The notes: generated by a model not told the origin, from the sequence alone. A DNA stretch of 64,000 bases from Promethearchaeota archaeon (GCA_019058365.1 JAHPZE010000001.1:409738-473737); one strand, 5' to 3'; positions 3,462 to 20,911 are shown, counted from the stretch's first letter. Program-made: numbers and translations.

Positions 3462-6400
3462 TTACATAGCAAGTGTCCTAATCATTGCATTAATTTGCTC
3501 AAAATCGTAATGTTTTATTGAAATTGCCCCAACTGGACAATTAACAGCACAAGTTCCACAGCCTTTACATAATCCTGAATTAACAGTAGACTTCTTTATC
3601 GGAAGGCTCACTTCTTCAAACTTCTTCAGCACTTCTACAATTTCTATTGCGTTATATGAACATACTTCCTCGCATGTCCCACAACCGATACATATCTCTT
3701 TTTCTACTTCCGCAATTAATCCAGATGTGGTAATTTCTTCTGCGCTTAAAAATCTGCATGCTCTTCCTGCTGCGCCATTTGCCTGTGATATTGAGTCTTG
3801 GATGTTTTTAGGCCAATGAGCACATCCACATAAGAAAATTCCATCAGTAGCAAAATCTAATGGTCTTAATTTAACATGAGCCTCCAAAAAAAAACCATTT
3901 TTGTCTAATGGAACTTTTAGTTTCTGTGCTAATTCATCTAAGTTATCAGCTGGAACCATTGGTGTTGATAGTACTATTAAATCCGTGTTAAAATTAATAT
4001 TTTCTTGTAGATTTGTGTCAAAGACTTTTATTTCAAATTTCTCTCTTCCTCCATTTATATCTCTAATGACAGGGGGATTGTCTAAATCATATCTCAAAAA
4101 TATAGCATCCTTTCTTCTTTCACGATAATATCTTTCAAATTCTTTCTTTGCCATTTGAAGATCTCTATAAAGCACTATTAGCTTTAGATCCTGCTTTATT
4201 TCCTTAAGGATATTAATATTTTTTATAGCAGTTTCACAACAAATATTTGAGCAGTAAGTTATCCCTTTTTCTTGTCTTGCATTAACGCATAATAATGTTG
4301 TAATATGATTAAGTTTATCTAACCATGATTGATCTTCATCCTTTAATTTCTGTTCTAATTGTAATTGTGTAATTACATTATGGTTCGTATAAGTATATTC
4401 AAAAAATTCATTAGGTTTTAACTCTTTTCCACCAGTGGCGACAATAATAGTGCCAATTTTTAATTCATGAACATTGCTATCTGAATCGATAACTGAAGCA
4501 TTATAGTTGCCAAGATATCCATAAATATCTTTCAATTCAGAATTTAAAAAGACTTGAATGTTCTTATTTTGTGTAACTTTTTCTATAGTTTCATTTAATA
4601 AGATTGAAGCATCCTCCTGGGTAGGATATAACATATTCAAATACTTTAAATTGCCACCTAAGTATCTGTCTTTTTCTACGAGATAAACTTTAAATCCTTG
4701 ATTAGCTATACTCAATGCGGCTGTCATTCCAGATATACCTCCACCAATTATCAATGCAGTTTGAGTAATTTTTAATTTCTCTTCTTTTTGCGATTTTAAT
4801 AATCTTGATTTAGCAACTCCCATTCTTATTAAATCAATTGCTTTTTTCGTAGCAAGCTCCTTCTCTTTCATATGTACCCATGAACATTGATCACGGATAT
4901 TTACCATGTCAAAAAGATACTTGTTTAGACCTGCTTCTTGACATGTCTCTTGGAATAATGATTCATGGGTTCGTGGGGTACAAGACGCGACAATAAATCG
5001 ATTTAAATTATATTCACCTATTACTTCTTTAATTCGTTCTTGCGAATCAGAACTACAAGAATAAAGATTATCTTCACAAAAAACTACATTAGGCAATGTT
5101 TTTATGTGTTCTATAACTTGAGGAATCTCAATATATTTTCCAATATTAATACCACAATGACAGATGAGGACCCCAATTCTAGGTATATCTGTTTCTTTAA
5201 CTGCCTTTTCTGGTATCCCTACAATTTTTTCTTGTGTCTCAGTAAACTTAAAAGAATTAAGTAAAGTTGCTACTTGTGAAGCTACCCCACTGGAATCAGC
5301 TACCGTTTCTGGTATATCCATTGGACCTTGGCAAAAACCAGCTAAAAAAATGCCTTCTTTAGAGGATAAAGATTTACTGTAATATGATTTCTCCTGAAAA
5401 AAATTATATTCATCCAACTCGATATTTAAAACTTGAGCTAATTCTCTAGTTCCAGCCGAAGGGACTAGGGGTGTGGCCAATACTACTAAATTTGCCTTAA
5501 AATCCTTAAATTTACCAATTTTTAGATCTTCATAATGAATTACTAAATCATTTGTTTCTGGATCTTCTATTATTCTGCTAATTTTAGTTTGGAAATATTT
5601 TACCCCATATTCTGACTGAGCTCGCTGGGTAAACTCGTAGAAGTTTTTTCCATAAGCCCTAACATCATGCCTAAATACAAAACACTGTGAGTTTTCAGAA
5701 TGTTCCTTAGTTATGATTGCTTCTTTAGCTGTATACATGCAACAAACTGAAGAACAATACGGAACACCTTCACGTAAATCCCTTGAACCCGCGCATTGAA
5801 TAAATGCTATTTTTTCTGGCTCTTTCGCATCGCTAGGTCTTACAATATGCCCCTGAAATGGTCCAGAAGCTGATAATATTCGCTCATATTCCAAAGCACT
5901 TACCACATTTTTATAATTATAACCCCATCTTGAGGTTAACTCTTCTCCTAACACATCATATCCAGTAGCAACAACAATAGCACCAACGTTCAATTTGATT
6001 TCTTGAGGTTTCTGTTCATAATCTATGGCTTCTGCCTTACAAACTTTCTCACAGACCCCGCATACTCCTTTAGTTAATTTTAAACACAATTCAGAGTCAA
6101 TTAAGTATACCGGAGGTACTGCTTGAGGAAATGGAATGTAGATTGACTTTCTTTTACCAAGATTCATATCAAAGATGTTAGGGGTTTCAATCTTTGGACA
6201 TTTAGCAGCACAGTCACCACAGCCTTTACATTTAGTCTCATCAATATAACGAGGTTTCTTAAGTACTGTAACATCAAAATTACTTGCGTTTCCAGAAACT
6301 TTTTGAACTTCATGATAAGTCATTAATTCAATGTTAGGATTTCTAAATACTTCCACCATTTTAGGCGCAAGAATACATAAACTACAATCGTTTGTAGGAA

Positions 6401-6542
6401 AAGTTTTATCAAGTTGAGCCATTCTTCCTCCAATCGATGGGGTTTTTTCTACTAGGTAAACTTTAAAGCCTAATTCAGTTAAGTCTAAAGAAGTTTGGAT
6501 CCCTGCTATTCCACCACCAATAACTAACACTGATCCTTCCAC
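3462..6542 (-). CDS. hdrA: HdrA-like protein, long form with two FAD-binding modules (1026 aa)
   Basis: Two GGGxxG motifs, FPTNDC, QCAGSR...CSSVCC, internal RIGVLICHCG/ASCTPRTHE, C-terminal ferredoxin. Confidence 0.93.
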   Translation of the reverse strand: MEGSVLVIGGGIAGIQTSLDLTELGFKVYLVEKTPSIGGRMAQLDKTFPTNDCSLCILAPKMVEVFRNPNIELMTYHEVQKVSGNASNFDVTVLKKPRYIDETKCKGCGDCAAKCPKIETPNIFDMNLGKRKSIYIPFPQAVPPVYLIDSELCLKLTKGVCGVCEKVCKAEAIDYEQKPQEIKLNVGAIVVATGYDVLGEELTSRWGYNYKNVVSALEYERILSASGPFQGHIVRPSDAKEPEKIAFIQCAGSRDLREGVPYCSSVCCMYTAKEAIITKEHSENSQCFVFRHDVRAYGKNFYEFTQRAQSEYGVKYFQTKISRIIEDPETNDLVIHYEDLKIGKFKDFKANLVVLATPLVPSAGTRELAQVLNIELDEYNFFQEKSYYSKSLSSKEGIFLAGFCQGPMDIPETVADSSGVASQVATLLNSFKFTETQEKIVGIPEKAVKETDIPRIGVLICHCGINIGKYIEIPQVIEHIKTLPNVVFCEDNLYSCSSDSQERIKEVIGEYNLNRFIVASCTPRTHESLFQETCQEAGLNKYLFDMVNIRDQCSWVHMKEKELATKKAIDLIRMGVAKSRLLKSQKEEKLKITQTALIIGGGISGMTAALSIANQGFKVYLVEKDRYLGGNLKYLNMLYPTQEDASILLNETIEKVTQNKNIQVFLNSELKDIYGYLGNYNASVIDSDSNVHELKIGTIIVATGGKELKPNEFFEYTYTNHNVITQLQLEQKLKDEDQSWLDKLNHITTLLCVNARQEKGITYCSNICCETAIKNINILKEIKQDLKLIVLYRDLQMAKKEFERYYRERRKDAIFLRYDLDNPPVIRDINGGREKFEIKVFDTNLQENINFNTDLIVLSTPMVPADNLDELAQKLKVPLDKNGFFLEAHVKLRPLDFATDGIFLCGCAHWPKNIQDSISQANGAAGRACRFLSAEEITTSGLIAEVEKEICIGCGTCEEVCSYNAIEIVEVLKKFEEVSLPIKKSTVNSGLCKGCGTCAVNCPVGAISIKHYDFEQINAMIRTLAM

Positions 6543-7264
6543 TATTTAACACTTTCTTATTTTTTTGATAAAAATTTGTATTCACATCTTTTTTTCAGTT
6601 GAGTAAAAAATAAGGAAAGGTAATTATATAAATATTTTTATGAAAAATGATCGGAATTCGACATGTTTCACTTTGCGAATGATCATTCCCAAACATTTTC
6701 TAAGTTCAATACCTCGTAATTGGTCATAATTTCTATTTTTTGTTTCCGTTTCTAGGAATTATGCTCATTTTTGCTAATCAATTATGGGAATAAGGTCCAA
6801 ATTGATAACTTTTATTGTAGAATTTTAATGATAGTCAACTTTATGGATGTTTATTGACAGATTCGACTTTTTCAGCTATCGTTTTTCTATATTATGAATG
6901 TTTAGGAAAAAAAGTTAGCCTCAAAATATTATAAAATTACAAAATAATAAGAAAAATCATTAATTTCGATAGTTGTTCAAATCTTCCAAGAACTGTCATT
7001 TTAAAAGATTCATGTAATAGAAAATAAAAGAATATATTATGTTGAGTATCTCATATAATTATAAGACAAAAATTTTAAATCTAAACTTTTCAAAATGACC
7101 AGAGATAAAACAGACATAAATTACTTTAAATTTATGACAAAACGATGATTGAAAGAATAAATTCTTTTATAGGCAAAGAATGGGGTGAAAATTTTTTAGA
7201 CTTATTAAAAAATGGTGAAAAAACAAATTCATTATTGGAATTATAAAAAAATTTAGGTAATCTC

Positions 7265-8521
7265 ATGATTGAAGATAATAATAAGATTTTTAAATCTATT
7301 AGTGCAGGTGAACTCTTAACATCTAATCACGTAGAAAAACTAATCTGTCGAAGTGAGGCTATTAAAAGACTTACAGCAAATTTCGGAAGTATATTGAAAG
7401 AGCCAAAAAACTTCTCTATTAATTGCCTTCTTATCGGTAAGGGAGCTATCGGAAAAACGTTAGTTGCGAAATATTTTGGGTACGAACTTATTAGAAGAAA
7501 AGCTGTTGAAATGAAAATTAGATTTATGATTGAATATTTTAATTGTATTCATTTCCGTTCAAAAGGCAATATAATCAGAGAACTCATTGCTAAATATGTA
7601 CCTCTGAGTTGGAATCGAGGATATAAGCTTAACAAATCTCTATTATTTTCAAAATTAAAACAGGACAATCGGTTTATATTATTAATTCTTGATGAAGTTC
7701 ATCTTTTAAAATCAGAGGATATTTTAGCGCTTCTCGATATCGGAAAAAAATATTCACAGATAGCAACAATAATGATTTGTAGAACACAGGATTGGTTGCG
7801 AGTAAAAAAGGATAAATTGCTATTTGATGAAATTATAGAGCTTCGACCATACAATTTCAATGAAGTTTTTAACATCTTGAAATATAGGAGTGAAATTGCA
7901 TTCCAAAAAAATGTTATTACTGATGATGTATTGAAGACTATATCTCAGATTGTAGTAGATAATGAAAATATGAGAAACGGGCTCGAAATTTTAAGAAAAA
8001 GTGGTTCACTATGTGTAAAGAAAAACTTGGATCAAATAACTGCTGATATTGTGAAAGAAACCAACAAGGATATATATCCTACTTTTCGCAATGATCTAAT
8101 CACCGAATTAAATTTAAAAGAACACGAGTATTTAATATTATTTGGAGTTGCAAGATCAATAGTAAATCAAGACAACCACTACACGTCAACTGATGAAGCT
8201 TTTGAGGAATATCTAAAGATATGTGAGGAATATCAAAAACTTTATGACGATAATCAGAAGGTGTACCCTGGAATAATTGGAGATTATTCTATTAAACCAA
8301 TTGACAAAATGAACTTTAAAAAACATATTCACTTACTTACGCAACTGAAATTGATTGTTTCAAAGACAGTTAAAAATGAGGAACCGACAAACAGTAGACA
8401 TTTAGAGATCTCTTTATTAGATATATCTGAAACCAAATTATCCGTTTTACTAAAAGAGTTTTTAGATGGAAAATATAATGTACTTGACGATTTTAACCCC
8501 GGAGAAAGAATGCCCTTTTGA
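7265..8521 (+). CDS. cdc6: Orc1/Cdc6-family AAA+ ATPase (divergent paralog)
   Basis: Walker A GKGAIGKT, Walker B ILDEVH, PYNFNEVFNILKYR, C-terminal winged-helix-like region. Confidence 0.8.
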   Translation: MIEDNNKIFKSISAGELLTSNHVEKLICRSEAIKRLTANFGSILKEPKNFSINCLLIGKGAIGKTLVAKYFGYELIRRKAVEMKIRFMIEYFNCIHFRSKGNIIRELIAKYVPLSWNRGYKLNKSLLFSKLKQDNRFILLILDEVHLLKSEDILALLDIGKKYSQIATIMICRTQDWLRVKKDKLLFDEIIELRPYNFNEVFNILKYRSEIAFQKNVITDDVLKTISQIVVDNENMRNGLEILRKSGSLCVKKNLDQITADIVKETNKDIYPTFRNDLITELNLKEHEYLILFGVARSIVNQDNHYTSTDEAFEEYLKICEEYQKLYDDNQKVYPGIIGDYSIKPIDKMNFKKHIHLLTQLKLIVSKTVKNEEPTNSRHLEISLLDISETKLSVLLKEFLDGKYNVLDDFNPGERMPF

Positions 8522-8627
8522 GGAGCAGAACATTTGTGTCTTTTAAAATTTAAACTAATAATTTTAATAATTTTTTAGAGTAATAAGAAAAAGTGCATTA
8601 ATTCTCTAATATTGAATTTTTCACATA

Positions 8628-8800
8628 AACTTCATTGAAATCAGACTCTCAATTTACCATTTCATATGTATCCTTAGCGATGGGTAATATAAACATATTT
8701 ATAAGTTAAGAAGTAAAAAAAATATGATTTTTTAGATCATTAAAAAACGAATAGATTATGGTATTAAATTGTTTATAACGCGGATCTAGTTTTTTAATTT
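8628..8800 (-). repeat. Degenerate copy of mvhD extreme 3' end plus its 3' flank
   Basis: 8782-8800 ggatctagttttttaattt (reads IKKLDP on minus) vs 17436-17454 ggtcctagttttttaattt; 8723-8758 matches 16039-16074 at 32/36; contains the 22-bp motif at 8637-8658. Confidence 0.7.
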
Positions 8801-8908
8801 GATCTGATCTGTGATTAATTTCAAGTTCAATATGGTATCATTACTAATTAAATATGAAATACTAAAACTTAAATAATATTGTATACAAATTTACTATGGT
8901 AAACTAAT

Positions 8909-9193
8909 ATGTCAATTGTAAAAATTAAAAATAAGAAAGGTTTGGAACAACTTCAAGCCAAATTAACTCTAAGATTAGGTCGAAAACCCACACAGCAAGA
9001 GACTCTTGATTATTGCCTTATTTTAGCGAATCAAAATTTTGAAGAAATTATTCAAATAGCAATGAATCTTCCAATATTAAACCCTAAAAAAGCTCAAAAA
9101 ATTATTGAAAAAAGAAACAGCCTTGGTGATATTCCCTATAATCCTAACTCGCATTTTACTTCGGAAAATGATGACGATATTTATAACTTATAA
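8909..9193 (+). CDS. Putative antitoxin (VapB-like)
   Basis: 94 aa, abuts a PIN-domain gene, acidic ENDDDIY tail. Confidence 0.7.
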   Translation: MSIVKIKNKKGLEQLQAKLTLRLGRKPTQQETLDYCLILANQNFEEIIQIAMNLPILNPKKAQKIIEKRNSLGDIPYNPNSHFTSENDDDIYNL

Positions 9194-9643
9194 TTGGTGT
9201 TTCATGTGGGTGTATTCCTAGATACTGGTTTTTATCTTGGACTTTGTCATCCAAAGGATAAATATGCAGAACTAAGCGAAAAGATATTAAAAGAATTAGC
9301 TATAGGGAATTATGGAGTTCTATATACATCCTATTTTATTATAAATGAGGTGACTACATTAGCTGCCATCAGATCTAAAAATAATCTCAAAGTGTTCAAC
9401 CATCTGGAAAAACTATTGTGGGGAAGTGAAAAAATTGCAACTATTCTTCCTTTTGATTTAAATTTTGAACTTGAAACATGGCAATTATTCAAGAAAGAAA
9501 ATACGATTGACTTGAAAGAAAAAAAAACAATGAGTTATACAGATATCAGTTCTATTGTTCTCTGTAATCATCATCAAATCGAATATATTGTTAGTTTTGA
9601 TTCTCATTTTGATGGGTTTCTTCAGAGAATCTTTCAAGTATAA
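9194..9643 (+). CDS. vapC: PIN-domain toxin (VapC-like); true start may be GTG 9206
   Basis: FLDTG, IINEV, SYTD, SFDSHFD acidic PIN motifs. Confidence 0.88.
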   Translation: MVFHVGVFLDTGFYLGLCHPKDKYAELSEKILKELAIGNYGVLYTSYFIINEVTTLAAIRSKNNLKVFNHLEKLLWGSEKIATILPFDLNFELETWQLFKKENTIDLKEKKTMSYTDISSIVLCNHHQIEYIVSFDSHFDGFLQRIFQV

Positions 9644-9899
9644 GAATGTCTTTATGTGTTTTTTCAAAGAAATTTTTATGTAAATCAGACTATGAATTTA
9701 CCTTTCCTTACTAATTTTTAATATTACATAAAATGTTTCGAAAATGAAGAACTATTTTATGCTAATCATAGTAATTATTCATTTTTATAACTTCGAATGA
9801 GGTTTTTTTATTTATAGATTAAAGATTGAAGAGAAATAAAGAAAATTGTATCGAAAAAATTAAATGCTAACATCGTTATTAATCATTAAATGAAAAGTC

Positions 9900-10325
9900 T
9901 TGTTTCAGAAGTTGGTTAAAATGGAGGAAATCCTTCAATATTTAATGAAACACTGCTCTTTCCTATATAAGCCAAATCGATTTCGCTTTGTTGATTCTGG
10001 CTCATCAGAGAGTTTTGGAAATGCATTCTTGATTCTCGAACATGAGGATTTACGTTTGCAATTTGTCAGAGACCGCGGGCAAATATTCCTTGATTTTCAG
10101 CCAACAAAAAAACAAACCAAAAGCAATTGGTTTTCGATCGATATTATCAAGCAGATGGTAACAGGTAAGATAGAACCCTCAGCTGAAATGGATTCTGAGA
10201 AAGCAAAGTTCTTAAAAACCAATCTTGATAAAATCGAACAGCTTTTTTCTACTGCTAATATGGAAAGCACAATTAAGAAATTAAAAGAGTTAGAACGTGC
10301 ACGTGCAAAGCGATTATTTCCATGA
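9900..10325 (+). CDS. Hypothetical protein, possibly immunity-protein-like
   Basis: Clean ORF (likely start ATG 9921); LRLQFVRDRGQIFLDF segment; family assignment from memory only. Confidence 0.6.
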   Translation: MFQKLVKMEEILQYLMKHCSFLYKPNRFRFVDSGSSESFGNAFLILEHEDLRLQFVRDRGQIFLDFQPTKKQTKSNWFSIDIIKQMVTGKIEPSAEMDSEKAKFLKTNLDKIEQLFSTANMESTIKKLKELERARAKRLFP

Positions 10326-10369
10326 TTTTATCTGTTATATATAATAAATAAATCTGTCTGTTCCTTCAA

Positions 10370-12256
10370 TTAACACCATTCTTTATGGAAATCTGTTCCA
10401 AATATTCTTTTTAATGCCTTTAAGTAATCTTTATCTAACATTCTACAATAAGGCAACCAAGCATCTTTTATTCTCAATAAAACACTACGGACTTCTTCAT
10501 CTCTCTCCTTGATAACGAAAAAATGAGGAAATAAACTGAAAATATTGCATTCTAAGTATCTTTTAGCAATATCAGTATGATGATGATTCAAAATAAGATT
10601 ACAAATGTCACTAAAGAACCCAATTTCAAGACCTTCCTTGAGTTCATCGTCATAATAAACCCCAAGGAATATCCCTTTTAAATAACGAAATATTTCTTCA
10701 TAATCCAGATATTTAAAAACGAAATCAAAGAGATAATTTATTTGTCTTACTGTTTCTCCACCAAGGAAACTAGTTTTTCTCATTTGCGTCGTCCCTATTT
10801 GACGAAGTAAATGACTTCTATTTTCTATTAAATATTTTCTGATATCCTTAGGATTCTTCATAGATTTTAATCTGGTAATAGTGATTTTCGGTTCTAAATC
10901 TGGTTTAGTAATATAGACATTTACGACAGGTTTTCCTTGTCTTAAGGTATACAAATCCCAGGATTCCCACCTCTCATAGGGTTGTAACCAACCATGACTC
11001 CTCCTTAATTTAGGATCAAAGATCCTTAATCTTCTTGAAGTACTTGTTGTTTTCATAACACCCTCATCACCTATTCCTGTATAGTCATATTCTGTATAAC
11101 CGCAGACTACGCTACCAGGTTGAGTTATGTAATTTTTATCTGAAATACCTAATGCTTTCAATACAGGTCGTTCATTATCAATTTCTAAAACTATCTCTTC
11201 AAATGTGGGGGTTCTGTCAATTTGTCCTCTAATAATCGGCCAATTTTCCTCAATTTCATTAACATTATACTGAGTATCAGCAGCAAATAACCTATGAATA
11301 CTTTCTTCGTTTGGTGGTATGATCCCATGACATATAAAAATCATATATAATGAAGCAGGGATGGTATAATCACTAAAACTTCCTAAACTTATAGACAAAA
11401 AAACCGCTTTCTCCTCATGAGGATGAACTACCCAATTATACTCGGCATTAAGCGATTTAGTTCTAAGAAAATTTTTAATATTCAATCCGTCCTCGATGAT
11501 CTTTATAAATCTTCCATCGGAAGTCCCTTGTTTTTTAAATTCTAACCCATTAATTTTACATATTTGTTTTAGTGATTGAACTAATTTATTATCAAGCTCC
11601 CATTTAACAATCTTATCTTGTCTATCCTTAGATTTTATCGTATTATACATAGACCAAATATTGGGATTATCTATTGGTATTCTTTCTAATGTTGAGTCAT
11701 CGATTATTATTTTATCTTTTATCACTTTGGTTTTTGGGTCAATAAGAGTAATGAGTAAACCTATATTCGGATAATCATAACAAATATGGCGGTTCATCGA
11801 TTTGATCTCAGTTTCAGGATACTCTTTCTCGATGATTGATTGAATTTTTTGAGTAATATCCCAAGGAACTTTTTGTTTAATCCACCAATACTCAGTGAAA
11901 AATTCGCTATTTGAATATGAAGGAAAAATTTCTATAGTTAAAACAGATGATCCTAACACTTTACTGGCAGCAGTTTTTATCTTCCCAATTACTTCGTCTT
12001 TTTTCTTTATAAAAAATTCGTAAAAAAGGGGTTGACCATTAACATCATAAATCGTCAAAGGACTTTGATCATCCCATACAACTCTAAAACCTTCCCATAT
12101 CTTAAGATTTATATGCATATGTATTAATAGACCTGTGATAGCATGCTCAAATGCAACCTCCTTATCAACTAGGTGATTTTCTTCTTGTTCTGGAACTGGG
12201 ACTATATTATCGAACAAATCTATTTTCTTTTTTTTCATATTTTCTTTTAAAGTCAT
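10370..12256 (-). CDS. C39-peptidase-like protein, probably catalytically inactive
   Basis: N-terminal TIYDVNGQPLFYEF...AASKVLG propeptide-like region; TFEEIVLEIDNERP, VCGY, IFDP; catalytic Cys/His not visible. Confidence 0.6.
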   Translation of the reverse strand: MTLKENMKKKKIDLFDNIVPVPEQEENHLVDKEVAFEHAITGLLIHMHINLKIWEGFRVVWDDQSPLTIYDVNGQPLFYEFFIKKKDEVIGKIKTAASKVLGSSVLTIEIFPSYSNSEFFTEYWWIKQKVPWDITQKIQSIIEKEYPETEIKSMNRHICYDYPNIGLLITLIDPKTKVIKDKIIIDDSTLERIPIDNPNIWSMYNTIKSKDRQDKIVKWELDNKLVQSLKQICKINGLEFKKQGTSDGRFIKIIEDGLNIKNFLRTKSLNAEYNWVVHPHEEKAVFLSISLGSFSDYTIPASLYMIFICHGIIPPNEESIHRLFAADTQYNVNEIEENWPIIRGQIDRTPTFEEIVLEIDNERPVLKALGISDKNYITQPGSVVCGYTEYDYTGIGDEGVMKTTSTSRRLRIFDPKLRRSHGWLQPYERWESWDLYTLRQGKPVVNVYITKPDLEPKITITRLKSMKNPKDIRKYLIENRSHLLRQIGTTQMRKTSFLGGETVRQINYLFDFVFKYLDYEEIFRYLKGIFLGVYYDDELKEGLEIGFFSDICNLILNHHHTDIAKRYLECNIFSLFPHFFVIKERDEEVRSVLLRIKDAWLPYCRMLDKDYLKALKRIFGTDFHKEWC

Positions 12257-12281
12257 TACAAATAATTTTTCTTACATTAAA

Positions 12282-12485
12282 CTAGTTAAACTCCTCTCGA
12301 AGAATTGTTTGATAATCAAGATCTCTTTTCTTGAACGAAATCTTTTCTCCACCGTTATAAATGTTGTTAGTAATGGCGTTTTGAAACATGGACGTAAAGG
12401 AGATAGCTATATCCTTGTGCATAGCATCAAACTCTGGATTTCTATTCTTCTTCCTCTTTATCTTATCAGCAGAATAGGGTTCCAT
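12282..12485 (-). CDS. Short hypothetical ORF or gene remnant
   Basis: 67 aa, co-oriented 25 bp upstream of 10370-12256; no motif. Confidence 0.3.
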   Translation of the reverse strand: MEPYSADKIKRKKNRNPEFDAMHKDIAISFTSMFQNAITNNIYNGGEKISFKKRDLDYQTILREEFN

Positions 12486-13079
12486 TCAATTCAGCTAAAT
12501 TTATATGTATTATAAGTTCAATTGTAAAATCTTGTCTTATATTTCTATAGACCTTACCAACTTATAAAATTATCAGCACATATATTTCTTACTTTACTTT
12601 GGTATTGTATTATGATTTATTCTTTTTCTCTATTATTTAATGATATCAATTGATCTGTCGATTATTTTATAAATAAAAATTTATTTAAGAATAGAAACTC
12701 ATCCTCCACATTTCTGATCTGATCTCATAAAGGACAAAAAAGAAATCTAAATATTAATTTAGGATCTTAATCTAATTACGTCATTTTCACTCTAACATCT
12801 TTATATTTCTCACTTTAAATTTTCTTCGAAATCAAACTCTGAATTTTTTCCTAAAAAAAAAAGTAATGGATTTCTCTAGAGTAATTATCTCTTTGAAATT
12901 TTTATCCAAATTCTTAATTTTTCATTTATATAGCTAGCTTTTTAAAAATATCTTAAAAATTTAGTATTTTTTTGATAGAAACATTTAAATTTATAAAATC
13001 TAATGTAAATCCTTATAACGTAATTATCTTGATAAAAAACTGAAATTAAATAGAATTAAAAACTTAGGAGTGTATTACC

Positions 13080-13646
13080 ATGGGGAAAAAAGCATTATCA
13101 ATAATAGCAGTTTTAGGTTTTATTATTGGAGCATCAGGACTAGGTCTAGGAGTTTTTTCATTAATAAATATGCAAGCAAACCAAGGATCTTCAGGAACAA
13201 CTTGTGTTGTCGTCGGAATATGAGATCGGTTATATAAAAATAAGAATTATGCCCCTTATGATACAGATCAACAATATCTCATTAGAGTAGATGGGATAGA
13301 AGTAAATAATAGTGATTATTTTTTCTTAAATCGAACCGATACTCGATTTCATTTAATTAAAAGTGGTTGGTATCGAGTTAATCTGTTACTTACACTGGTT
13401 AGTATTTCTGGAACTGCAGATGTCTATTTCAGGGCTTTTAAGGAAGGATCAACTGCAGTAGCATTTGCTTATACATATAATGCTACCACTGATGGAAACT
13501 TTCTTACTATGGAAGGGCAATTCTATATTTACAGTGATGGTTCTAATTATTACGATTTCTATGTTTCATCAGGACTCATGACCAGTGATGTCGCGCCAAA
13601 TAACGCTTTTAACCAGTTAGGGATTGAATACGTTGGAGATTATTAA
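13080..13646 (+). pseudogene. Membrane-anchored beta-rich (C1q/BclA-C-like) protein interrupted by one in-frame TGA at 13221-13223
   Basis: Missed by ORF track. AGGAG upstream; MGKKALSIIAVLGFIIGASGLGLGVFSL...VVVGI*DRLYKN...FHLIKSGWYRVN...NQLGIEYVGDY; 188 codons otherwise open. Confidence 0.8.
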
Positions 13647-13722
13647 ATTTGTTGTTCTCAATAAATTGAAAGAAATTTATATCAAATCTTTATAAAATTA
13701 AATTTTTTTTTATCAGTTATTT

Positions 13723-14082
13723 TTAATGTAAATTGTCTTTATAAGGAGATTCCTCAAGAATTTTATCAAGCTCCTCCTTTTCCCATTGTGCGAATTTCGA
13801 ATCGAGTTGTTCCATTAATTTTATTAGTTTGGCAAATAATTGCCTCCTATTATCTTCATTGGGCTTACGATGTTCTAATTCATAATCATTCGCCATTATG
13901 AACACAATAGATTTGAATATCCAATATAATAGTTTTTCAATATCTTTTGTCTGTCTTCGTTCAAATTCTTCTCCTCTCTCGCTAACTACATAATTATACC
14001 CATTCTTATCAATTTCAATATGGGGAGAACCAAACCCATCACTAGAAGCACGAAAGGTAAGTAAATGACTTGGAGCGTTTAT
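13723..14082 (-). pseudogene. Imm63-like immunity protein, 5'-truncated
   Basis: Frame is open upstream of the listed 60-aa ORF: INAPSHLLTFRASSDGFGSPHIEIDKNGYNYVVSERGEEFERRQTKDIEKLLYWIF...YELEHR...RRQLFAK; no start codon. Confidence 0.7.
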
Positions 14083-14368
14083 CTCAACCAGGTTTGATAA
14101 TTTCTTAAGAAATATGGAAATTGAAACAGTTCTAATTTCTGGAGTTGTGACGAATTTTTGTGTTCATTCAACTACTCGAGAAGCATATGATTATGAATTT
14201 CAAACGATTATTGTGGAAAATTGTTGTGCAGCCTGGTCTGAAGATATCCATTTATCAATCCTAAAATCTTTTGGATTAATTTATGGTTGTATATTACCCT
14301 ATGAAAAAGTTATAAAAAAAATCTCAAGATCAATGAAAAAAGCAAAAAAAGAATTAGTGACTCATTAA
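14072..14368 (+). pseudogene. Isochorismatase/cysteine-hydrolase family, C-terminal half only
   Basis: GAFISTRFDNFLRNMEIETVLISGVVTNFCVHSTTREAYD; N-terminal catalytic Asp region missing. Confidence 0.8.
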
Positions 14369-14569
14369 ACTTATAAGTCCGGTGGCTAGCTTACTTTCAA
14401 ACTGCTCCCACAATTTCCATTTGGTAAGAGTATTTAGAACGGTAAAGAGAGCTTTAAAATTAAAAAATTAAAAATTTTTTAAAAACATTATAATTTAAAA
14501 TACTACTACTTAAAACTATAAGTTGAAATTTAAAATGCAAATTAGAAAAAATACTTAAGAGTTACTATT

Positions 14570-14746
14570 ATGAAAAAAAATAAAGGTAAAAAACGATATA
14601 AAACTGATGAATGGAATGAGATGAGCAGAGATCGCGAGGAAGACGAAATAGAAGAAGAAGACAAGGACTGGAATAAAAAAGATGATGAAGATGAGGAAAT
14701 GGGCGAAAAGGGAGATGAATTCCATGAATCAGATTATGACACATAA
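14570..14746 (+). CDS. 58-aa basic-head/acidic-tail small protein
   Basis: Below ORF cutoff: MKKNKGKKRYKTDEWNEMSRDREEDEIEEEDKDWNKKDDEDEEMGEKGDEFHESDYDT. Confidence 0.65.
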   Translation: MKKNKGKKRYKTDEWNEMSRDREEDEIEEEDKDWNKKDDEDEEMGEKGDEFHESDYDT

Positions 14747-15033
14747 TATCCTTACAATATTACTATGGTAGTAAAAAATATATCCCACACATAAAATCTC
14801 TTATTATTCTTACTGTTTGATAGCTGGTGTGTAAACATTTCTTAATTTTAACAGCAATTTTTTGTAAAACAATCTTTACCTTTTATTTAATAGTTTTTTC
14901 ATCGTTTTCAACCGATATATTTACCATTTTATACATACGCATAGAGATGGATGAATAATACAAACATATATCAAAGTTAATATATAAAAGAGATGATATT
15001 TTTTAAAACAGTAAATATAAATGAATAATTATT

Positions 15034-15112
15034 TTAAGTTGACCTTAAAGGATCTAGTTCTTTTATTTGGTTAATGAATTCTGCAATACCTTCAGCAAAT
15101 CGTTTTCCTTCA
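15034..15112 (-). pseudogene. Relic of an mvhD 3' end
   Basis: Reads EGKRFAEGIAEFINQIKELDPLRST* vs EGKRFAEVITEFTNEIKKLGPLQVI* of 17420-17851 (16/25 identical, same stop position). Confidence 0.88.
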
Positions 15113-15142
15113 GTTCTTATTAAGATAAAAAAATTTAATATA

Positions 15143-15844
15143 TCAATTTTTTTCAATTTCAATTTCAATATCACTAAGTAGATAGTCAAGTTGTTTCGAT
15201 TTTTTATTGATATTTAACACAGTATCAAGATATACTACATCTTCGTTTCCTAAAAGCAAGTGAATTGAACCAGATCTTAATAGAAAAAACTCGAAAATAT
15301 CAGGAATTTCTTTTTTAATACGTAGACTTTTTGTAGGATATCTCACAGCCGAAATGAATATTCCCTTTTTATGGATTACTTCATTTCTTTCCAATTTCCA
15401 ATAATCAAACCTAGTTGCTATCCAAGCTATTAAGAAAATAAAAGCTAGAATGATAACCGTTGACAAATAAAATTGATAACTCATTATAATAGTCACCTCG
15501 AATGACAATATTTGTGAGATTATTGCATTTGGATGGAAGATAAGAGTAAAAATCATTATTAAGATAATAGCAGCTAAGAGCAATATAAAGAATTTAGTTG
15601 ATGAGGTGTCGAAAGCAATAATAAATAAATTAGCGAAAAAAACTGTAATCCAAATTGCTCCAAGTATCGGTTCATCCATTCCTACAAAGTATTGTATTAG
15701 AAATAATGTTAAAGACGTAAAGAAGAGTGGATAAAAGAAAATAACTTTAGAATAACTCCTCAAAAATATTTTCTCTTCTCTTTTTATATCTTTTTCAATC
15801 TGATCTTCTGTGGGTAATTTAGATCTATCACTCATATTAACCAT
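15143..15844 (-). CDS. Membrane protein (about 4 TM) with soluble C-terminal domain
   Basis: Hydrophobic segments followed by a beta-rich, PH-like tail. Confidence 0.8.
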   Translation of the reverse strand: MVNMSDRSKLPTEDQIEKDIKREEKIFLRSYSKVIFFYPLFFTSLTLFLIQYFVGMDEPILGAIWITVFFANLFIIAFDTSSTKFFILLLAAIILIMIFTLIFHPNAIISQILSFEVTIIMSYQFYLSTVIILAFIFLIAWIATRFDYWKLERNEVIHKKGIFISAVRYPTKSLRIKKEIPDIFEFFLLRSGSIHLLLGNEDVVYLDTVLNINKKSKQLDYLLSDIEIEIEKN

Positions 15845-16021
15845 TTTTTTCTATTAATTAGATAAAATTTATTTGTTTTGATTTAAATTTGAAAGTTAAA
15901 TATGTGAAATACTCATATTGTCTTAATAAATATTATTAATTCAAATTATAAAAATTTCAAGAGTATAATGAGATCGCTATTAGAATAAGGCATTTTAGCA
16001 TTTTTTGAGAAAATTTCAAAG

Positions 16022-16167
16022 CTAATAAGAAAAAGAGGTATAATTTTTTAAATCATTAAAAAACAAACAGATTAATATGTAATATTGCGTGCAACGGACC
16101 AAGTTTTTTAATTTCATTAGTAAATTCTGTAATAACTTACGCAAATCGCTTCTCTTCAGATGCACTT
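16022..16167 (-). pseudogene. Relic of mvhD 3' end plus 3' flank
   Basis: 16090-16167 aligns ungapped to 17430-17507 at 68/78 nt; reads SASEEKRFA*VITEFTNEIKKLGPL. Confidence 0.93.
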
Positions 16168-16272
16168 TACAGAAGATTTATTAATTTCTCATATGTGATC
16201 ATGAAAAACCACAATTTTATACCAATTGATTTTATAATATGATTTTAATTCAATTTTTATTTTTGATTAATA

Positions 16273-16475
16273 TCAAAGGAATTTTAATGCATCATTCCCA
16301 ATTTCTAACAACTTTATAATGACTTAGCGGTCAAGATGGGGGCACTCTTCTTGGATCTCGTTGATGTATAATTCATACCAACTAGTTCATAAATTAAAGC
16401 AACAAGAGTTCTCGTGCCTTTTATAATAGGCTTCCCCCCAAGGATCTCTGGGTTTAATTCAATTAGATCCGACAT
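16273..16475 (-). pseudogene. DUF433-family (antitoxin-like) pseudogene
   Basis: MSDLIELNPEILGGKPIIKGTR...GMNYT, frameshift, then INEIQEECPHLDR*VIIKLLE. Confidence 0.82.
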
Positions 16476-16582
16476 CTTTTAAGATATAATAAAATGATTC
16501 TGAGATAAATATATTATTAATAAATAAAAATCCAATGATATATTATAAAAGGTGAATATCTTTAAATACAAAGGGTAATTAT

Positions 16583-16843
16583 ATGGGTATGGGTGATTAC
16601 ATGGGAAAAGTTGAAATTGATGAACGTGGTCGTTTGACTTTACCTTCCAAAATACGAGAAAAATTACTTATACAACCAGGTGATAAATTAACCATTAAGA
16701 TTAATCCAGACAATTCAATTAATATTAAGAAAAGCCCCTCTAAAAAAGAAATATTCGATGAGCTTGTAGGATGTATAACAACTCCATTAGAAGAGAAACT
16801 AACACCAGAGTTGATTAAAAGCATATGGACCAAAAACCAATAA
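16583..16843 (+). CDS. AbrB/MazE-family antitoxin
   Basis: IDERGRLTLPSKIREKLLIQPGD; overlaps PIN gene. Confidence 0.9.
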   Translation: MGMGDYMGKVEIDERGRLTLPSKIREKLLIQPGDKLTIKINPDNSINIKKSPSKKEIFDELVGCITTPLEEKLTPELIKSIWTKNQ

Positions 16844-17256
16844 TTTTTGTAGATTCAAACTATTGGATCTATTTATTCGATAAAACAACAGATGAGCACG
16901 AATCAGTTAAAAAACATTTTAATAATCTCTATGATGAAGCAGTTTTAGCAATAAATACAGTTGTGATGATGGAAGTAATGCATTATTTAGTCAAAAGACT
17001 TGGATCTGAAATAGCTAAAGAGAAATGGGATTTGTTTTCATCAATAAATTTTATAGTTGGAAATTTAGAATTTGAAGATTTGGATACTATTTTTTCAATA
17101 TTGTGCAAGTACTCACATACGGGAATAGGAGGGAGAGATGCCACGATCCTATCATTTCTAGAAATAAATCAAATCCAAAAGATTTGTACTCATGATAATG
17201 CATTTAAAAAAATTCCAAATCTAGAAATAATCGACCCCATTACACAAAAAAATTAA
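16825..17256 (+). CDS. vapC: PIN-domain toxin (VapC-like)
   Basis: FVDSN, MMEV, GRDA, THDNAF. Confidence 0.9.
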   Translation: MDQKPIIFVDSNYWIYLFDKTTDEHESVKKHFNNLYDEAVLAINTVVMMEVMHYLVKRLGSEIAKEKWDLFSSINFIVGNLEFEDLDTIFSILCKYSHTGIGGRDATILSFLEINQIQKICTHDNAFKKIPNLEIIDPITQKN

Positions 17257-17419
17257 TGATACAATCAAAATTTATAAAATTAGATTAATTTCTTTGGAAA
17301 TTAGACTCTAAATTTACAAATTCTACAACTATTTTCAGAAACTTGAAGCTAAAATATTTTAATGTTAATAAGAAAATGAAAATGAGATATGATTTTTTAA
17401 TAATTGAAAAATAAATATT

Positions 17420-17851
17420 TTAAATAACTTGCAGTGGTCCTAGTTTTTTAATTTCATTAGTAAATTCAGTGATGACTTCAGCAAATCGCTTCCCTTCAGA
17501 TGCACTTACCCATTCAAGTCTAAATCTTTTTTCAAGATTGAATATTTTTAATATTTCCTTAAAATGTTCAAATCTATCCCTAGCAAACTCATTTCCTTTT
17601 AAGTAATGACAGTCACCGATATGACATCCTGTCACAATGACTCCATCAATACCATCTTTAAAAGCCTCCAAAATAAAAGCGGGATCTACTCTACCAGAGC
17701 ACATCACTCTTACTATCCGAATAGTAGCAGGGTACTGAAAACGAGATACGCCAGCTAAATCTGCCCCAGCATAACTACACCAATTACAACAAAAACATAA
17801 TATATTTGGATGGAAATCTTTTTTATTTACTTTCTTTTTTGACTTAGACAT
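17420..17851 (-). CDS. mvhD: MvhD [2Fe-2S] subunit (Cys form)
   Basis: FCCNWCSYAGADLAG, MCSGRVD, GCHIGDCHY, WVSASEG. Confidence 0.96.
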   Translation of the reverse strand: MSKSKKKVNKKDFHPNILCFCCNWCSYAGADLAGVSRFQYPATIRIVRVMCSGRVDPAFILEAFKDGIDGVIVTGCHIGDCHYLKGNEFARDRFEHFKEILKIFNLEKRFRLEWVSASEGKRFAEVITEFTNEIKKLGPLQVI

Positions 17852-17869: not shown

Positions 17870-20800
17870 TTAAGTTTGGACAAGAAGTGCAGAAATCATA
17901 GCGTGAATTTGCTCAAAACCAAAATGTTTAATAACTATTGTTGAATTAGGACATTGTGCGCCACATGTACCACATCCCTTACAAAGCGCAGGATTTATAT
18001 GAGATTTTTTATTAGTCATTGTAAAATCTTCGAACGTTCTTTCTTTTTCTATTAATTCTATAGCATTAAATTGACAGACTTCTACACAGCTTCCACAGCC
18101 AATGCAATTTTCTTCTATTACAACCGCTACAAGTCCAGATGTTACAAGCTTTTCAGCACTTAAAATTTTAACTGCTTGAGCAGCAGCTCCATTGGATTGT
18201 GCAATTGATTCTCGAAGATCTTTAGGTGAATGTGCACTTCCACATAAATATATACCATCTGTAGCAAAATCAATTGGTCTCAATTTAACATGTGCTTCCA
18301 AAAAGAATTTGTCCTCATTAAGTGGCACTTTTAACATTTTTGCTAGCTCTTCATTTTCTTTTATAGGTGCTACGAGACCAGTACTTAGTACGACTAAATC
18401 AGGATTTATTTCAAGGGCTCCTAAATCTGGATTATTGATTTTAATTTTTAATCTTTTATTTTTAATAGTTAATTCTGGAGGTTTAGATTCATCAAATCTA
18501 AGAAATATAACCTTTTTATCTCGTGCTAAGTTATAATATTTTTCTTTAAAACCATATGTTCGGATATCACGATATAGAATTACTATTTCTAAATTAGGAT
18601 TGATTTCTTTTGCTTTTAGCGCATTTTTAATAGCTTCTGAACAACAGATTCTACTACAATAAGGGTGATCTTCATTTCTAGATCCAACGCATTGAATCAT
18701 AGCTATTGATTTCAATCCTTTTATTTTATCCGTAGTAAAAAGATCTTTTTCAAATTCGGTTTGGGATATAATTCTTTGATCTTTCCCGAAACCATATTCT
18801 TTTGGTTGATATTCTTTTGCCCCTGTGGCTACAATAATTATTCCATGGTCTAGATCAACACTTTTACTATTATTTCCATAACTTATGTTTGTGGAAAAAT
18901 TCCCTATATATCCTGAAATTGAATTAATTTGAGCATTTTTAAATACGTGAATGAATTGATTATTTTCAACTTTTTTAATTAGGTTTCCAAGATACTCCTG
19001 AATATCATCATTTTCAAGGGTTTGATAAATATTTTTGGCAAATCCACCTAGAGAATCTTCCTTTTCAATTAAAAAAACTTCATAACCTTGAGAAGCCAGA
19101 TTTAATGCTGCTGACATTCCAGATACACCCCCTCCTATGATGAGACCCTTACTTATTACAGTAATTTCTTGTTCCTGCAACGGGATTAATTGGCTAGCCT
19201 TTGCTATTGACATACGCAATAAATCTTTTGATTTTGCTGTAGCTTTTTCAGGTTCATGCATATGAACCCATGAACATTGATCTCGAATATTTACCATTTC
19301 AAAAAGATATTTATTCAAACCAGCTTCCCTAATTGTTGCTTGAAATAATGGTTCATGTGTTCTTGGAGTACATGAGGCAACAATAACTCTATTAAGTTGA
19401 TTTTTTTCAATTTTTTCTTTAATATTTGTTTGGGTATCTGCTGAACAAGTATACAAATTATGTTCAGCATAAACAACATTGGGCAATGTTTTAACGTATT
19501 CAACTACATTAGGAACATCAACAACTCCACCAATATTTATCCCGCAATGGCATATAAATACCCCTATTCGCGGGTGTTGACCACTTACATCTAATTCTTC
19601 GGGAAGTTCTTTCTTAGAGACTAATTTATTTCTTGCTTCTGATAGAAGAACATTTACATATCCAGCAGCAGCACTAGCTTCAATAACGGTTTCTGGAATA
19701 TCTTTTGGTGTTGCGAAAGACCCACAAACATAAATTCCAGGTCTTGAAGTCTCTACTGGGTTAAAGGTTCCAGTTTTACAAAACCCATATTCATTTAACT
19801 GGATATTTAATTTCTGTGCTAATTCTTTTGCTTTTTGATTAGGTTGCATTCCAACGGAAAGGACGACTAGATTAAAAATTTCTTTAACAATTTTTCCATT
19901 TCCTGTTTCATAATAAACCTTTAAATCTTTAGAGTCCGGAATTTCTTTAATAGAAGAAATTCTGCGTCTGATATATCTTATTCCATACTCATTCTTCGCT
20001 CGTTCAATATATTTATCAAAATCTTTACCATATGCTCTGATATCCATTGTAAAAATTGTTGGTTCTATAATATTCATGTGCTCTTTTGCTATTACTGCTT
20101 CTTTTGTTGTATACATGCAACACACAGAAGAGCAGTAATCAATTCTATGCTTTCTATCTCTTGAACCTATACAATGTAAAAAAGCAATTTTTTTGGGGAT
20201 AATCCCATCAGAAGGGCGAATTATTAAACCAGAATGTGGTCCACTAGCACTGAGTATACGTTCAAATTCAATACTAGTAATCACATTTAAATGCTTACCG
20301 TAACCCAATTCCGTTAAAGGAGTAGGATCATATTCATCAAATCCAATTGCTAATACTACAGCTCCTACATTAAGGTTAATTAAACTATCTTGAAGTTCAT
20401 AATTTATAGCTTTTGCTTTACATATTCCTTTACAAATACCACAACCTATACATTTTTGTTTATTAATTGAGAAAACTAATGGAACTGCTTGAGGAAATTT
20501 CACAGAAATTGCTGCTTTGTTAGAAAGCTTTTCATTAAAAAAATCAATAGCCTCTATAGGACATTGTTGAGCACACAAACCGCACCCTGTACATTTATTC
20601 TGATCCAAACGAAGGGTTGTTTGAGTTAAATGAACATTAAAATTTCCTGGAACACCTTCAATTTTTTCAATTGAGGAATTAATTAAAATATCTATATTTT
20701 CATGTCGACCAGTTTGTACTAATTTTGGGGCAAGAATACATATTGCACAGTCATTAGTTGGAAATGTTTTATCCAATTGAGACATAGTTCCTCCAATACT

Positions 20801-20911
20801 GGTTGTAGATTCTGCTAGATATACTTTATAGCCTGAATCTGCTAAATCTATAGAAGTTTGAATACCAGCAATTCCACCACCAATAACTAGAACAGCTCCG
20901 ACTTTCTCCAT
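17870..20911 (-). CDS. hdrA: HdrA-like protein, long form (1013 aa)
   Basis: Same architecture as 3462-6542. Confidence 0.93.
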   Translation of the reverse strand: MEKVGAVLVIGGGIAGIQTSIDLADSGYKVYLAESTTSIGGTMSQLDKTFPTNDCAICILAPKLVQTGRHENIDILINSSIEKIEGVPGNFNVHLTQTTLRLDQNKCTGCGLCAQQCPIEAIDFFNEKLSNKAAISVKFPQAVPLVFSINKQKCIGCGICKGICKAKAINYELQDSLINLNVGAVVLAIGFDEYDPTPLTELGYGKHLNVITSIEFERILSASGPHSGLIIRPSDGIIPKKIAFLHCIGSRDRKHRIDYCSSVCCMYTTKEAVIAKEHMNIIEPTIFTMDIRAYGKDFDKYIERAKNEYGIRYIRRRISSIKEIPDSKDLKVYYETGNGKIVKEIFNLVVLSVGMQPNQKAKELAQKLNIQLNEYGFCKTGTFNPVETSRPGIYVCGSFATPKDIPETVIEASAAAGYVNVLLSEARNKLVSKKELPEELDVSGQHPRIGVFICHCGINIGGVVDVPNVVEYVKTLPNVVYAEHNLYTCSADTQTNIKEKIEKNQLNRVIVASCTPRTHEPLFQATIREAGLNKYLFEMVNIRDQCSWVHMHEPEKATAKSKDLLRMSIAKASQLIPLQEQEITVISKGLIIGGGVSGMSAALNLASQGYEVFLIEKEDSLGGFAKNIYQTLENDDIQEYLGNLIKKVENNQFIHVFKNAQINSISGYIGNFSTNISYGNNSKSVDLDHGIIIVATGAKEYQPKEYGFGKDQRIISQTEFEKDLFTTDKIKGLKSIAMIQCVGSRNEDHPYCSRICCSEAIKNALKAKEINPNLEIVILYRDIRTYGFKEKYYNLARDKKVIFLRFDESKPPELTIKNKRLKIKINNPDLGALEINPDLVVLSTGLVAPIKENEELAKMLKVPLNEDKFFLEAHVKLRPIDFATDGIYLCGSAHSPKDLRESIAQSNGAAAQAVKILSAEKLVTSGLVAVVIEENCIGCGSCVEVCQFNAIELIEKERTFEDFTMTNKKSHINPALCKGCGTCGAQCPNSTIVIKHFGFEQIHAMISALLVQT

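Follow-up and report, generated by a model that had tools for sequence, protein, structure and literature searches.

Displaced mvhD tails at a genus-wide insertion hotspot in a Lokiarchaeia-type archaeon

The closest described counterpart of the locus treated here, a 10.9-kb island behind the 3' end of mvhD in a Promethearchaeota archaeon, is 'insertion with long target duplication', which is known from bacterial restriction-modification genes (Nobusato et al., 2000; Furuta, Abe and Kobayashi, 2010, PMC2853133). The survey in the latter paper (PMC2853133) recovered no archaeal case. A displaced target fragment also marks the end of genomic islands at the 3' ends of tRNA and protein genes (Islander, PMC4383910), and SGI1 occurs in tandem arrays (PMC2297512). 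Cassettes are arrayed in integrons and in integrase-less attC clusters (CALINs), archaeal ones included (Ghaly et al., 2022, PMC9668308), and a host recombinase serves the Xer-dependent integrative elements (IMEX) and dif modules, with XerA/dif described from archaea (PMC2958812). The mvhD island lies in a window of 64,000 nt, meaning the whole stretch of DNA analysed (GCA_019058365.1, JAHPZE010000001.1:409738-473737), of a Lokiarchaeia-type genome. This source genome is labelled G000 and the window is G000:C16:409738-473737; other G labels denote further genomes compared, mostly of the same genus, C after a colon denotes a contig and L labels denote extracted loci.

Between the conserved genes mvhD and hdrA1 lies an insertion hotspot that is found across the genus, and window positions 6543-17419 represent its filled state. 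An orthologous mvhD (86-97% identical) was found in 32 of the 53 other genus genomes searched, and 30 of these loci were examined, which together with G000 gives 31. In five genomes (G004, G015, G018, G031 and G048) the site is empty, the mvhD stop and the hdrA1 start being 517-567 nt apart. This distance is 0.7-13.5 kb in 15 further genomes, and the spacer of G012 is longer than 15 kb. The ancestral spacer of about 0.55 kb has grown to 10.9 kb in G000 through stacked accessory DNA. The cargo is mostly unlike between genomes and includes acyltransferases, CoA ligases, flavodoxins, a beta-galactosidase, transporters and others. The variable zone takes in approximately the last 45-85 nt of mvhD and ends about 170-280 nt upstream of hdrA1, and in the window its right-hand border is the conserved hdrA1 upstream region (6543-6823, minus strand), which is 74-91% identical in relatives. 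The minus-strand gene order is a 425-aa gene, hdrA2 (17870-20911), mvhD (143 aa, 17420-17851), the island, hdrA1 as the conserved right-hand anchor gene (1026 aa, 3462-6542), a 426-aa gene and a third hdrA; a paralogous mvhD (73% identical) follows right outside the window.

The initial annotation had pointed to three degenerate copies of the mvhD C-terminus in the orientation of the gene, and all three are present. They were recovered with blastn when the live mvhD end and its flank (window 17200-17600, minus strand) were compared with the whole window: relic 1 (16167-16010) with 76% identity over 164 nt (E 8e-27), relic 3 (8803-8625) with 68% over 187 nt (E 3e-15) and relic 2 (15113-14963) with 69% over 159 nt (E 2e-14). 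Unrelated AT-rich matches in the window reached at best only E 1e-5 to 1e-6. All three relics lie on the minus strand, like mvhD. With MvhD as the tblastn query, relic 1 aligned with 24 of 28 aa identical (E 9e-10) and relic 2 with 16 of 24 (E 1e-5). A repeat search recovered the relics as families D1 and D3-D6, with D2 also assigned to relic 2, and a MAFFT alignment agrees. The repeated tail of the live gene comprises its last 85-88 nt (17420-17507, minus strand) and belongs to the 'NEIKKLGPLQVI' allele class. The copies proposed from the initial annotation are thus real, but the repeat is longer than was given there, as it comprises up to 85 nt of coding sequence and a further 67-136 nt of the flank downstream.

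Relic 1 (tail plus about 70 nt of flank) starts at -85, keeps an in-frame stop and has the same tail class as the live gene. Relic 3 (tail 8697-8803) is the most decayed, with about 35 coding nt recognisable. The coding parts of relics 1, 2 and 3 are 81%, 66% and 67% identical to the live tail, so the similarity does not simply drop with distance from the live gene as had been supposed. The low value for relic 2 results from a different tail allele, one that matches the live G005 tail at 80% identity. In a tblastn search with HdrA and MvhD no further hdrA or mvhD fragments were found between the relics. We conclude that the relics are displaced mvhD tails. Such tail relics are rare at the hotspot: of the 31 loci only three carry any, namely G000 with three relics and G101 and G008 with one each. 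Both cargo and relic number vary among the loci, as was anticipated for a comparison of relatives.

The present live mvhD tail was imported as an allele and was not copied from the resident tail. The tails fall into two classes: 'NQIKELGPLRP', found at the empty sites of G015 and G018 and also in G005, and 'N(E/Q)IKKLGPLQxI', found in insert-bearing genomes and in relic 1. The mvhD genes of G000 and G005 are approximately 90% identical along the gene and 64% in the last 45 nt. Relic 2, which starts near -77 and has a native 'NQIKEL..PLR' class tail, is 80% identical to the tail of G005, 79% to that of G015 and 66% to its own live tail. G101 combines a cassette-class live tail with a native-class relic. 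This pattern fits an insert that brings its own tail. The tail-flank-element module of the G000 live tail is also live in G003, G017 and G002. A metagenome scan with MvhD returned only paralogues of at most 78% identity and no strain-level variants.

The comparison with relatives also gives the order of arrival. In G005, the live mvhD end with its flank is 89% identical to relic 2 and the 808 nt downstream of it, and this region of the window (14304-15111, minus strand) is the head of block 3. G043 matches 14466-15113 (86%, 650 nt) and G093 matches 14456-14760 (86%), in the same arrangement as in G005. Block 1 (live tail, flank and a VapBC-like pair) and block 2 (relic 1 and a putative membrane-protein gene) were not found at the mvhD site in any of the relatives searched. 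Since the relic 2 region is the live end in G005, G043 and G093, blocks 1 and 2, those nearest mvhD, are later additions on top of an older state that these three genomes still show, and they brought the present live tail. The empty sites, the differing cargo and the orthology of relic 2 bear out the earlier proposal of additive insertion at the mvhD 3' end, in which a working tail is supplied and the older one displaced.

The boundaries of the relics were compared between loci. Relic starts differ, lying at -120 in G101, at -85 and -77 in G000 and at -53 in G008. The relic of G101 is followed by an intact native spacer of 567 nt, and its insert joins mvhD through the end of an extended junction element (see below), 7 nt of filler and then mvhD from -120. 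This junction is an illegitimate join. The varying relic starts and the filler join of G101 argue against a fixed attachment site.

The same scar is present at other genes. A genome-wide scan compared the 3' ends of all open reading frames (ORFs) of at least 110 codons with the G000 genome, and about 29 further gene ends had a co-oriented copy of 34-117 nt located 0.2-16 kb downstream and not within a paralogue. The cargo at these loci is unrelated and they have no recombinase in common. Examples among them are found at C7:150793-151135, C36:54930-55047 and C6:10909-11011. Two convergent gene pairs have reciprocal relics, for example C52:38593-38709 and 44237-44311, and in both pairs the overlapping ends are duplicated together around an insert of 3-5.5 kb. 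A comparable case is found behind hdrA1 in G005, where blocks are flanked by the live end of hdrA1 and a 102-nt relic of its tail. At L018 of G005 (C1), positions 8540-11120, block 2 and the second PIN pair lie downstream of hdrA1 in the orientation of mvhD. The hdrA1 scar of G005 is of the same kind as that at mvhD and is made up of blocks that are present in the mvhD island of G000. With about 29 other gene ends and hdrA1 of G005 carrying the same scar, the process is not specific to mvhD. An undescribed, mvhD-specific system, as the initial annotation suggested, is contradicted by these other scarred gene ends, by the varying boundaries, by the filler join and by the bacterial precedents.

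No recombinase gene is present in any island examined. Neither the window nor the relatives' islands gave a match to PF00589 or PF00239, where for the relatives 40 cargo proteins were scanned and the best 25 of 67 families listed. The earlier statement that the window lacks an integrase was correct, and the genome-wide search of G000 yielded only two tyrosine recombinases, XerA (NF040815, 238.7 bits at a cut-off of 220 bits) and a divergent 429-aa protein, both on other contigs; G000 has no serine recombinase (PF00239). The 429-aa protein is encoded at L143:4682-5971 (G000:C46) and adjoins a 935-aa protein with a GTPase domain. Ten relatives have no PF00589 match at the mvhD locus; in nine of them the matches are on other contigs, and the only match of G002 lies on the same contig at a distance of about 69 kb. 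XerA is all that G002 and G037 carry, and G003 has no match. IntI was not found in the genomes searched, which encode only XerA-type proteins of about 307-316 aa (TIGR02249 98 bits, cut-off 265 bits). The Y1 transposase (PF01797) is absent from 12 genus genomes, G000 included, and from all 16 g12 genomes searched, and no island ORF matches a nuclease family. No tRNA genes were found in the 64-kb window, and a tRNA was therefore rejected as the insertion target.

The initial annotation overlooked a junction element of about 50 nt, which is a commoner joint marker at the hotspot than the relics. Its consensus is ATGGAAAGGTAAATTCAG(A/C)GTCTGATTTCAATGAAAATTCCTTTGAAAAA. The G000 island holds four to five copies, all on the minus strand: a degenerate one (17286-17317, nhmmer E 0.13) that follows the approximately 95-nt flank of the live tail (flank and element together 17286-17419), a decayed one after relic 2 (14898-14933), one after relic 3 and its flank (8614-8666, nhmmer E 8e-8; relic, flank and element together 8614-8803), and two in other places, a good copy (9657-9712, nhmmer E 1e-8) and a partial one (12817-12846, nhmmer E 0.0017, repeat family D7). 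Some copies carry a 5' hairpin extension or a longer 3' part. A long form of about 110 nt, in which the core is followed by a CCCTTTAGGGG hairpin, is common to G101 (L126, C4), G040 (L161, C173), G037 and G048, and in G101 the 3' end of this long form is the point at which the insert joins mvhD.

The 22-nt core of the element occurs in 38 of the 41 genus genomes searched, with up to 36 copies per genome (36 in G002). It is also present in four other genera of the family and was found in none of 20 genomes of three sister families; the per-genus matches within the family were 10/11, 15/16, 3/4, 1/4 and 1/2, and a reversed-pattern control gave no matches. The copies make up co-oriented arrays with units of 0.5-3 kb, each holding one to three genes in either orientation. 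The approximately 30 copies in mvhD spacers all point the same way as mvhD, and each array has a single orientation. One cassette is shared, from element to element and at 94% identity, between the G005 mvhD island (L018:2381-3320) and an array of G001 (L032:13771-14710). At L018:3304-3320 (G005) and L019:2420-2436 (G007), a left half-element stops precisely at the dyad centre, behind TTCAG(A/C), and is joined there to unrelated DNA, which suggests a break hotspot at the hairpin loop. Other breakpoints of shared cassettes scatter over about 50 nt of the element or fall at gene borders, and a single precise crossover point was not established. Beyond the copy at 9657-9712, the homology of G005 for the next block begins about 25 nt further.

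The core forms a 7-bp hairpin in which the first loop base is the only freely varying base, and the symmetry of the element consists of arms of 7-8 bp around a centre of 1-3 nt. Its best match to an 11-6-11 pattern is 6 of 11 complementary positions in the core, with 7 of 11 reached only in the 5' hairpin extension of some copies, and a dif-like build was rejected because the true symmetry is different. By inspection the consensus has no attC box (GTTRRRY). An Rfam search gave no match at E up to 1, so that a known RNA family was rejected, and predicted folds are weak hairpins with a z-score of -1.3, no better than shuffles. A viral origin was rejected because no exact match was found in viral contigs. 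No recombinase was found beside the arrays examined. Since most of the G000 loci with tail relics are without the element, relics and element are two separate markers that overlap at mvhD.

Toxin-antitoxin modules had been noted in the island, and Pfam supports two PIN-based pairs. Block 1 carries a VapBC-like pair (16583-17256, plus strand) of an AbrB/MazE-type antitoxin (16583-16843, PF04014 3e-8) and a PIN toxin (16825-17256, PF01850 5e-12), with 88% identical copies at other loci, G095:C221 and G002:C11. The second toxin-antitoxin-like pair (8909-9643, plus strand) consists of a 149-aa PIN protein (PF01850 1.4e-5) and a 94-aa partner without assignment, and is 93% identical over 786 nt to the copy downstream of hdrA1 in G005. 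The 233-aa product of block 2 (15143-15844, minus strand) has four hydrophobic segments and no family match, and is probably a membrane protein; relic 1 and this gene (15109-16160) are 88% identical to the copy downstream of hdrA1 in G005. Between the start of the antitoxin gene and relic 1, the spacer (16275-16530) holds a segment of about 200 nt and a 53-aa ORF (16314-16475, minus strand). The segment has matches of 69-76%, with at least one copy each, in eight genomes (seven congeners and G000 at C11:13292-13413), and an adjoining 55-nt piece (16203-16257) is 91% identical in G013. This segment may be a small gene or a further repeat.

The distal cargo is partly decayed, while other distal genes are intact. 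A truncated isochorismatase gene (14114-14368, plus strand) retains 84 aa of a 244-aa gene that is intact in G012; it matches PF00857 at profile positions 113-157 only and is 91% identical in nucleotides to L026:3112-3504. The remnant of a decayed membrane-protein gene (12970-13650, plus strand), of which only ORF fragments of 45-55 aa are left in the window, is 83% identical over 684 nt to L025:11161-11843, and the gene is intact in the mvhD island of G008. Three ORFs follow that have no family match, of 67 aa (12282-12485, minus strand), 628 aa (10370-12256, minus strand) and 141 aa (9900-10325, plus strand). For the 628-aa protein the sole functional lead is a weak C39-peptidase-like match. 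Its gene is 98% identical in G005:C15 and G039:C24, against approximately 90% for the flanking core genes, and this difference suggests a recent horizontal transfer between species as a single gene. The homology (window 10357-12191; G005:C15:46455-48289; G039:C24:1-1505) is confined to the gene itself. G039 keeps the order of 628-aa gene, 141-aa gene, junction element and PIN gene. For the unknown island ORFs, the label 'immunity-like' found no support, since searches of Pfam, NCBIfam, PADLOC and PDB sequences gave no defence or immunity match.

On the hdrA1 side of relic 3, positions 8547-8611 (minus strand) correspond to the native mvhD downstream flank, +40 to +104 of the empty site (83% identical to G018 1386-1450). 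The adjoining Orc1/Cdc6 gene (7265-8521, plus strand) is divergent, with Cdc6_lid at 4e-13 and 128 bits for TIGR02928, under the cut-off of 181 bits. It was thought to lie between relics, but is located beyond relic 3 within the native spacer, and no counterpart was found at the mvhD site of any relative searched. On its hdrA1 side (6900-7110) there is no supported fourth relic or junction element.

To explain the array we favour, with a probability of roughly 0.6, an insertion with long target duplication that is anchored by homology and needs no integrase, superimposed on a cassette array with the junction element at its joints. Incoming DNA from related Lokiarchaeia would carry the 3' part of mvhD, a flank of about 95 nt, a conserved junction element and then the cargo, and would enter via host homologous recombination anchored in mvhD. 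An illegitimate join could place the far end upstream of the resident tail, or a block in circular form might integrate Campbell-style via short tail homology, and either route would strand the old tail as a dead direct repeat. Once relics exist, homology from tail to tail and from element to element would allow blocks to be gained, lost and moved. Relic 1 with the putative membrane-protein gene, now behind hdrA1 in G005, may be an example of such movement. The island would at the same time be part of the family-wide, co-oriented cassette arrays jointed by the approximately 50-nt element.

Several points weigh against this explanation. The mechanism is read from scars alone. Relics 1 and 2 start within 8 nt of each other, which would also fit a fixed site, although propagation through homologous recombination explains near-equal starts as well. 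The absence of integrases from the relatives' islands rests mainly on whole-genome PF00589 searches. Finally, the 22-mer core is identical across genera and conserved far beyond neutral DNA, and together with the two breaks at the dyad centre this hints at a sequence-specific enzyme.

Such an enzyme is at the heart of a different explanation, in which XerA, the second tyrosine recombinase or an unrecognised dyad-cutting enzyme acts in trans on the approximately 50-nt element and inserts and excises cassettes in an integron-like manner. An archaeal gene-cassette system not described before would then recombine at the element, with the mvhD tail module perhaps as one of its docking sites and the relics as by-products of the transfer of the whole tail-flank-element module. 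The conservation of the element across genera of one family, with an empty reversed-pattern control, would be expected from this, as would the single orientation of the copies in mvhD spacers and within arrays, the cassettes of 0.5-3 kb between copies (with the one shared between G005 and G001 matching from element to element), the two junctions cut exactly at the dyad centre, and a core whose only free base is the first of the hairpin loop. However, no recombinase stands beside any array examined, and G002 has 36 copies of the element yet only XerA, while G003 has no PF00589 match at all. The element also lacks the build of dif (11-bp arms and 6-bp spacer), the attC R-box and an Rfam match, the other breakpoints scatter or fall at gene borders, most tail-relic loci of G000 do without the element, and the relic boundaries vary. 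We therefore regard recombination in trans as a tentative and rather unlikely explanation. If it is true, the displaced tails would be a stratigraphy of cassette capture in the closest prokaryotic kin of eukaryotes.

The direct repeats of about 140-190 nt that flank the inserts follow the pattern of 'insertion with long target duplication' (PMC2853133) and might also have been made by staggered cutting, after which both tail copies diverged in place. The tail alleles speak against this: relic 2 is nearer to the live tails of G005 and G015 than to its own, the live tail of G000 differs from that of G005 only in the last 45 nt, as alleles and not twins would, and in G101 the live tail and the relic belong to different classes. 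A simple staggered-cut duplication is thereby rejected for relic 2 and G101, and as a general explanation it seems very improbable. That the insert supplies its own tail allele would also suit a homing endonuclease or another selfish gene whose island carries a recoded replacement tail, and the 628-aa gene, with its high identity between species and its homology confined to the gene, could be taken as such a gene. Yet no nuclease domain was found in any island ORF, the peptidase-like lead for the 628-aa protein is weak, and the cargo of relatives consists of ordinary metabolic genes, which makes a selfish island slightly less credible still. Several hdrA and mvhD paralogues nearby could point to decayed tandem duplications of the hdr operon, but these were ruled out because tblastn finds no other hdr fragments between the relics. 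An assembly artefact was ruled out as well, since parts of the array recur in the independently assembled G005, G043, G093 and G039, and since the repeats are only 66-81% identical, unlike near-identical collapsed strain variants. Operon duplication or artefact is accordingly the least plausible of all these explanations.

The locus offers a dated and readable record of accessory-gene gain in an Asgard archaeon, which takes place blockwise at conserved landing-pad genes without element-borne integrases. Gene inflow into Asgard archaea bears on models of eukaryogenesis, and the homology-anchored route together with the family-wide element would be a concrete mechanism that can be tested. Dead gene tails and the junction element can also serve as practical markers of islands in metagenome-assembled genomes of Lokiarchaeia.

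Among the known systems, integrons and CALINs resemble the arrays in their co-oriented conserved sites, in the accessory and toxin-antitoxin cassettes of 0.5-3 kb that are common to arrays and species, and in that most arrays have no adjacent integrase. They differ in that the approximately 50-nt element has neither attC R-boxes nor a long imperfect palindrome and that the genes here lie in either orientation. IMEX likewise form tandem arrays by means of a host recombinase without an element-borne integrase, and XerA is present in nearly all genomes here; the element, however, has arms of 7-8 bp and a centre of 1-3 nt in place of 11-bp arms and a 6-bp spacer, and is restricted to some genera. 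Hairpin elements of the IS200/IS605 or REP-RAYT type differ since their Y1 HUH transposase is absent from the genomes searched, and homing-endonuclease islands differ since the insert contains no endonuclease gene.

Islands that carry an integrase form a further group. They include the accretion of integrative and conjugative elements and cis-mobilizable elements (ICE/CIME) at fda in Streptococcus thermophilus and the tycheposon islands of Prochlorococcus. As at mvhD, the target gene is restored, a displaced fragment remains at the island end and serial fragments log serial integrations. Those islands use a cognate integrase and a fixed att core, whereas no integrase was found at the mvhD locus, whose relic boundaries are variable and where filler bases occur at one junction. 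Homology-facilitated illegitimate recombination, reportedly described by de Vries and Wackernagel in 2002 from naturally transformable bacteria, combines a one-sided homologous anchor with an illegitimate far join and would fit the G101 junction and the imported tail.

The greatest likeness is to insertion with long target duplication. In both, accessory genes are inserted where a relative has an empty site, a direct repeat of more than 30 bp and of variable length derives from the target and often overlaps the 3' end of a gene, and the insert lacks a mobility gene; every one of these features is found at the mvhD locus, with repeats of about 60-190 nt. The differences are in the cargo, which here consists of toxin-antitoxin, membrane and metabolic genes, in the three-deep stack, and in the two repeats, which here are different alleles, one of them arriving with the insert. 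The mvhD array is one case of a genome-wide, integrase-free insertion whose target duplications are long and variable, a variant of the events described from bacteria.

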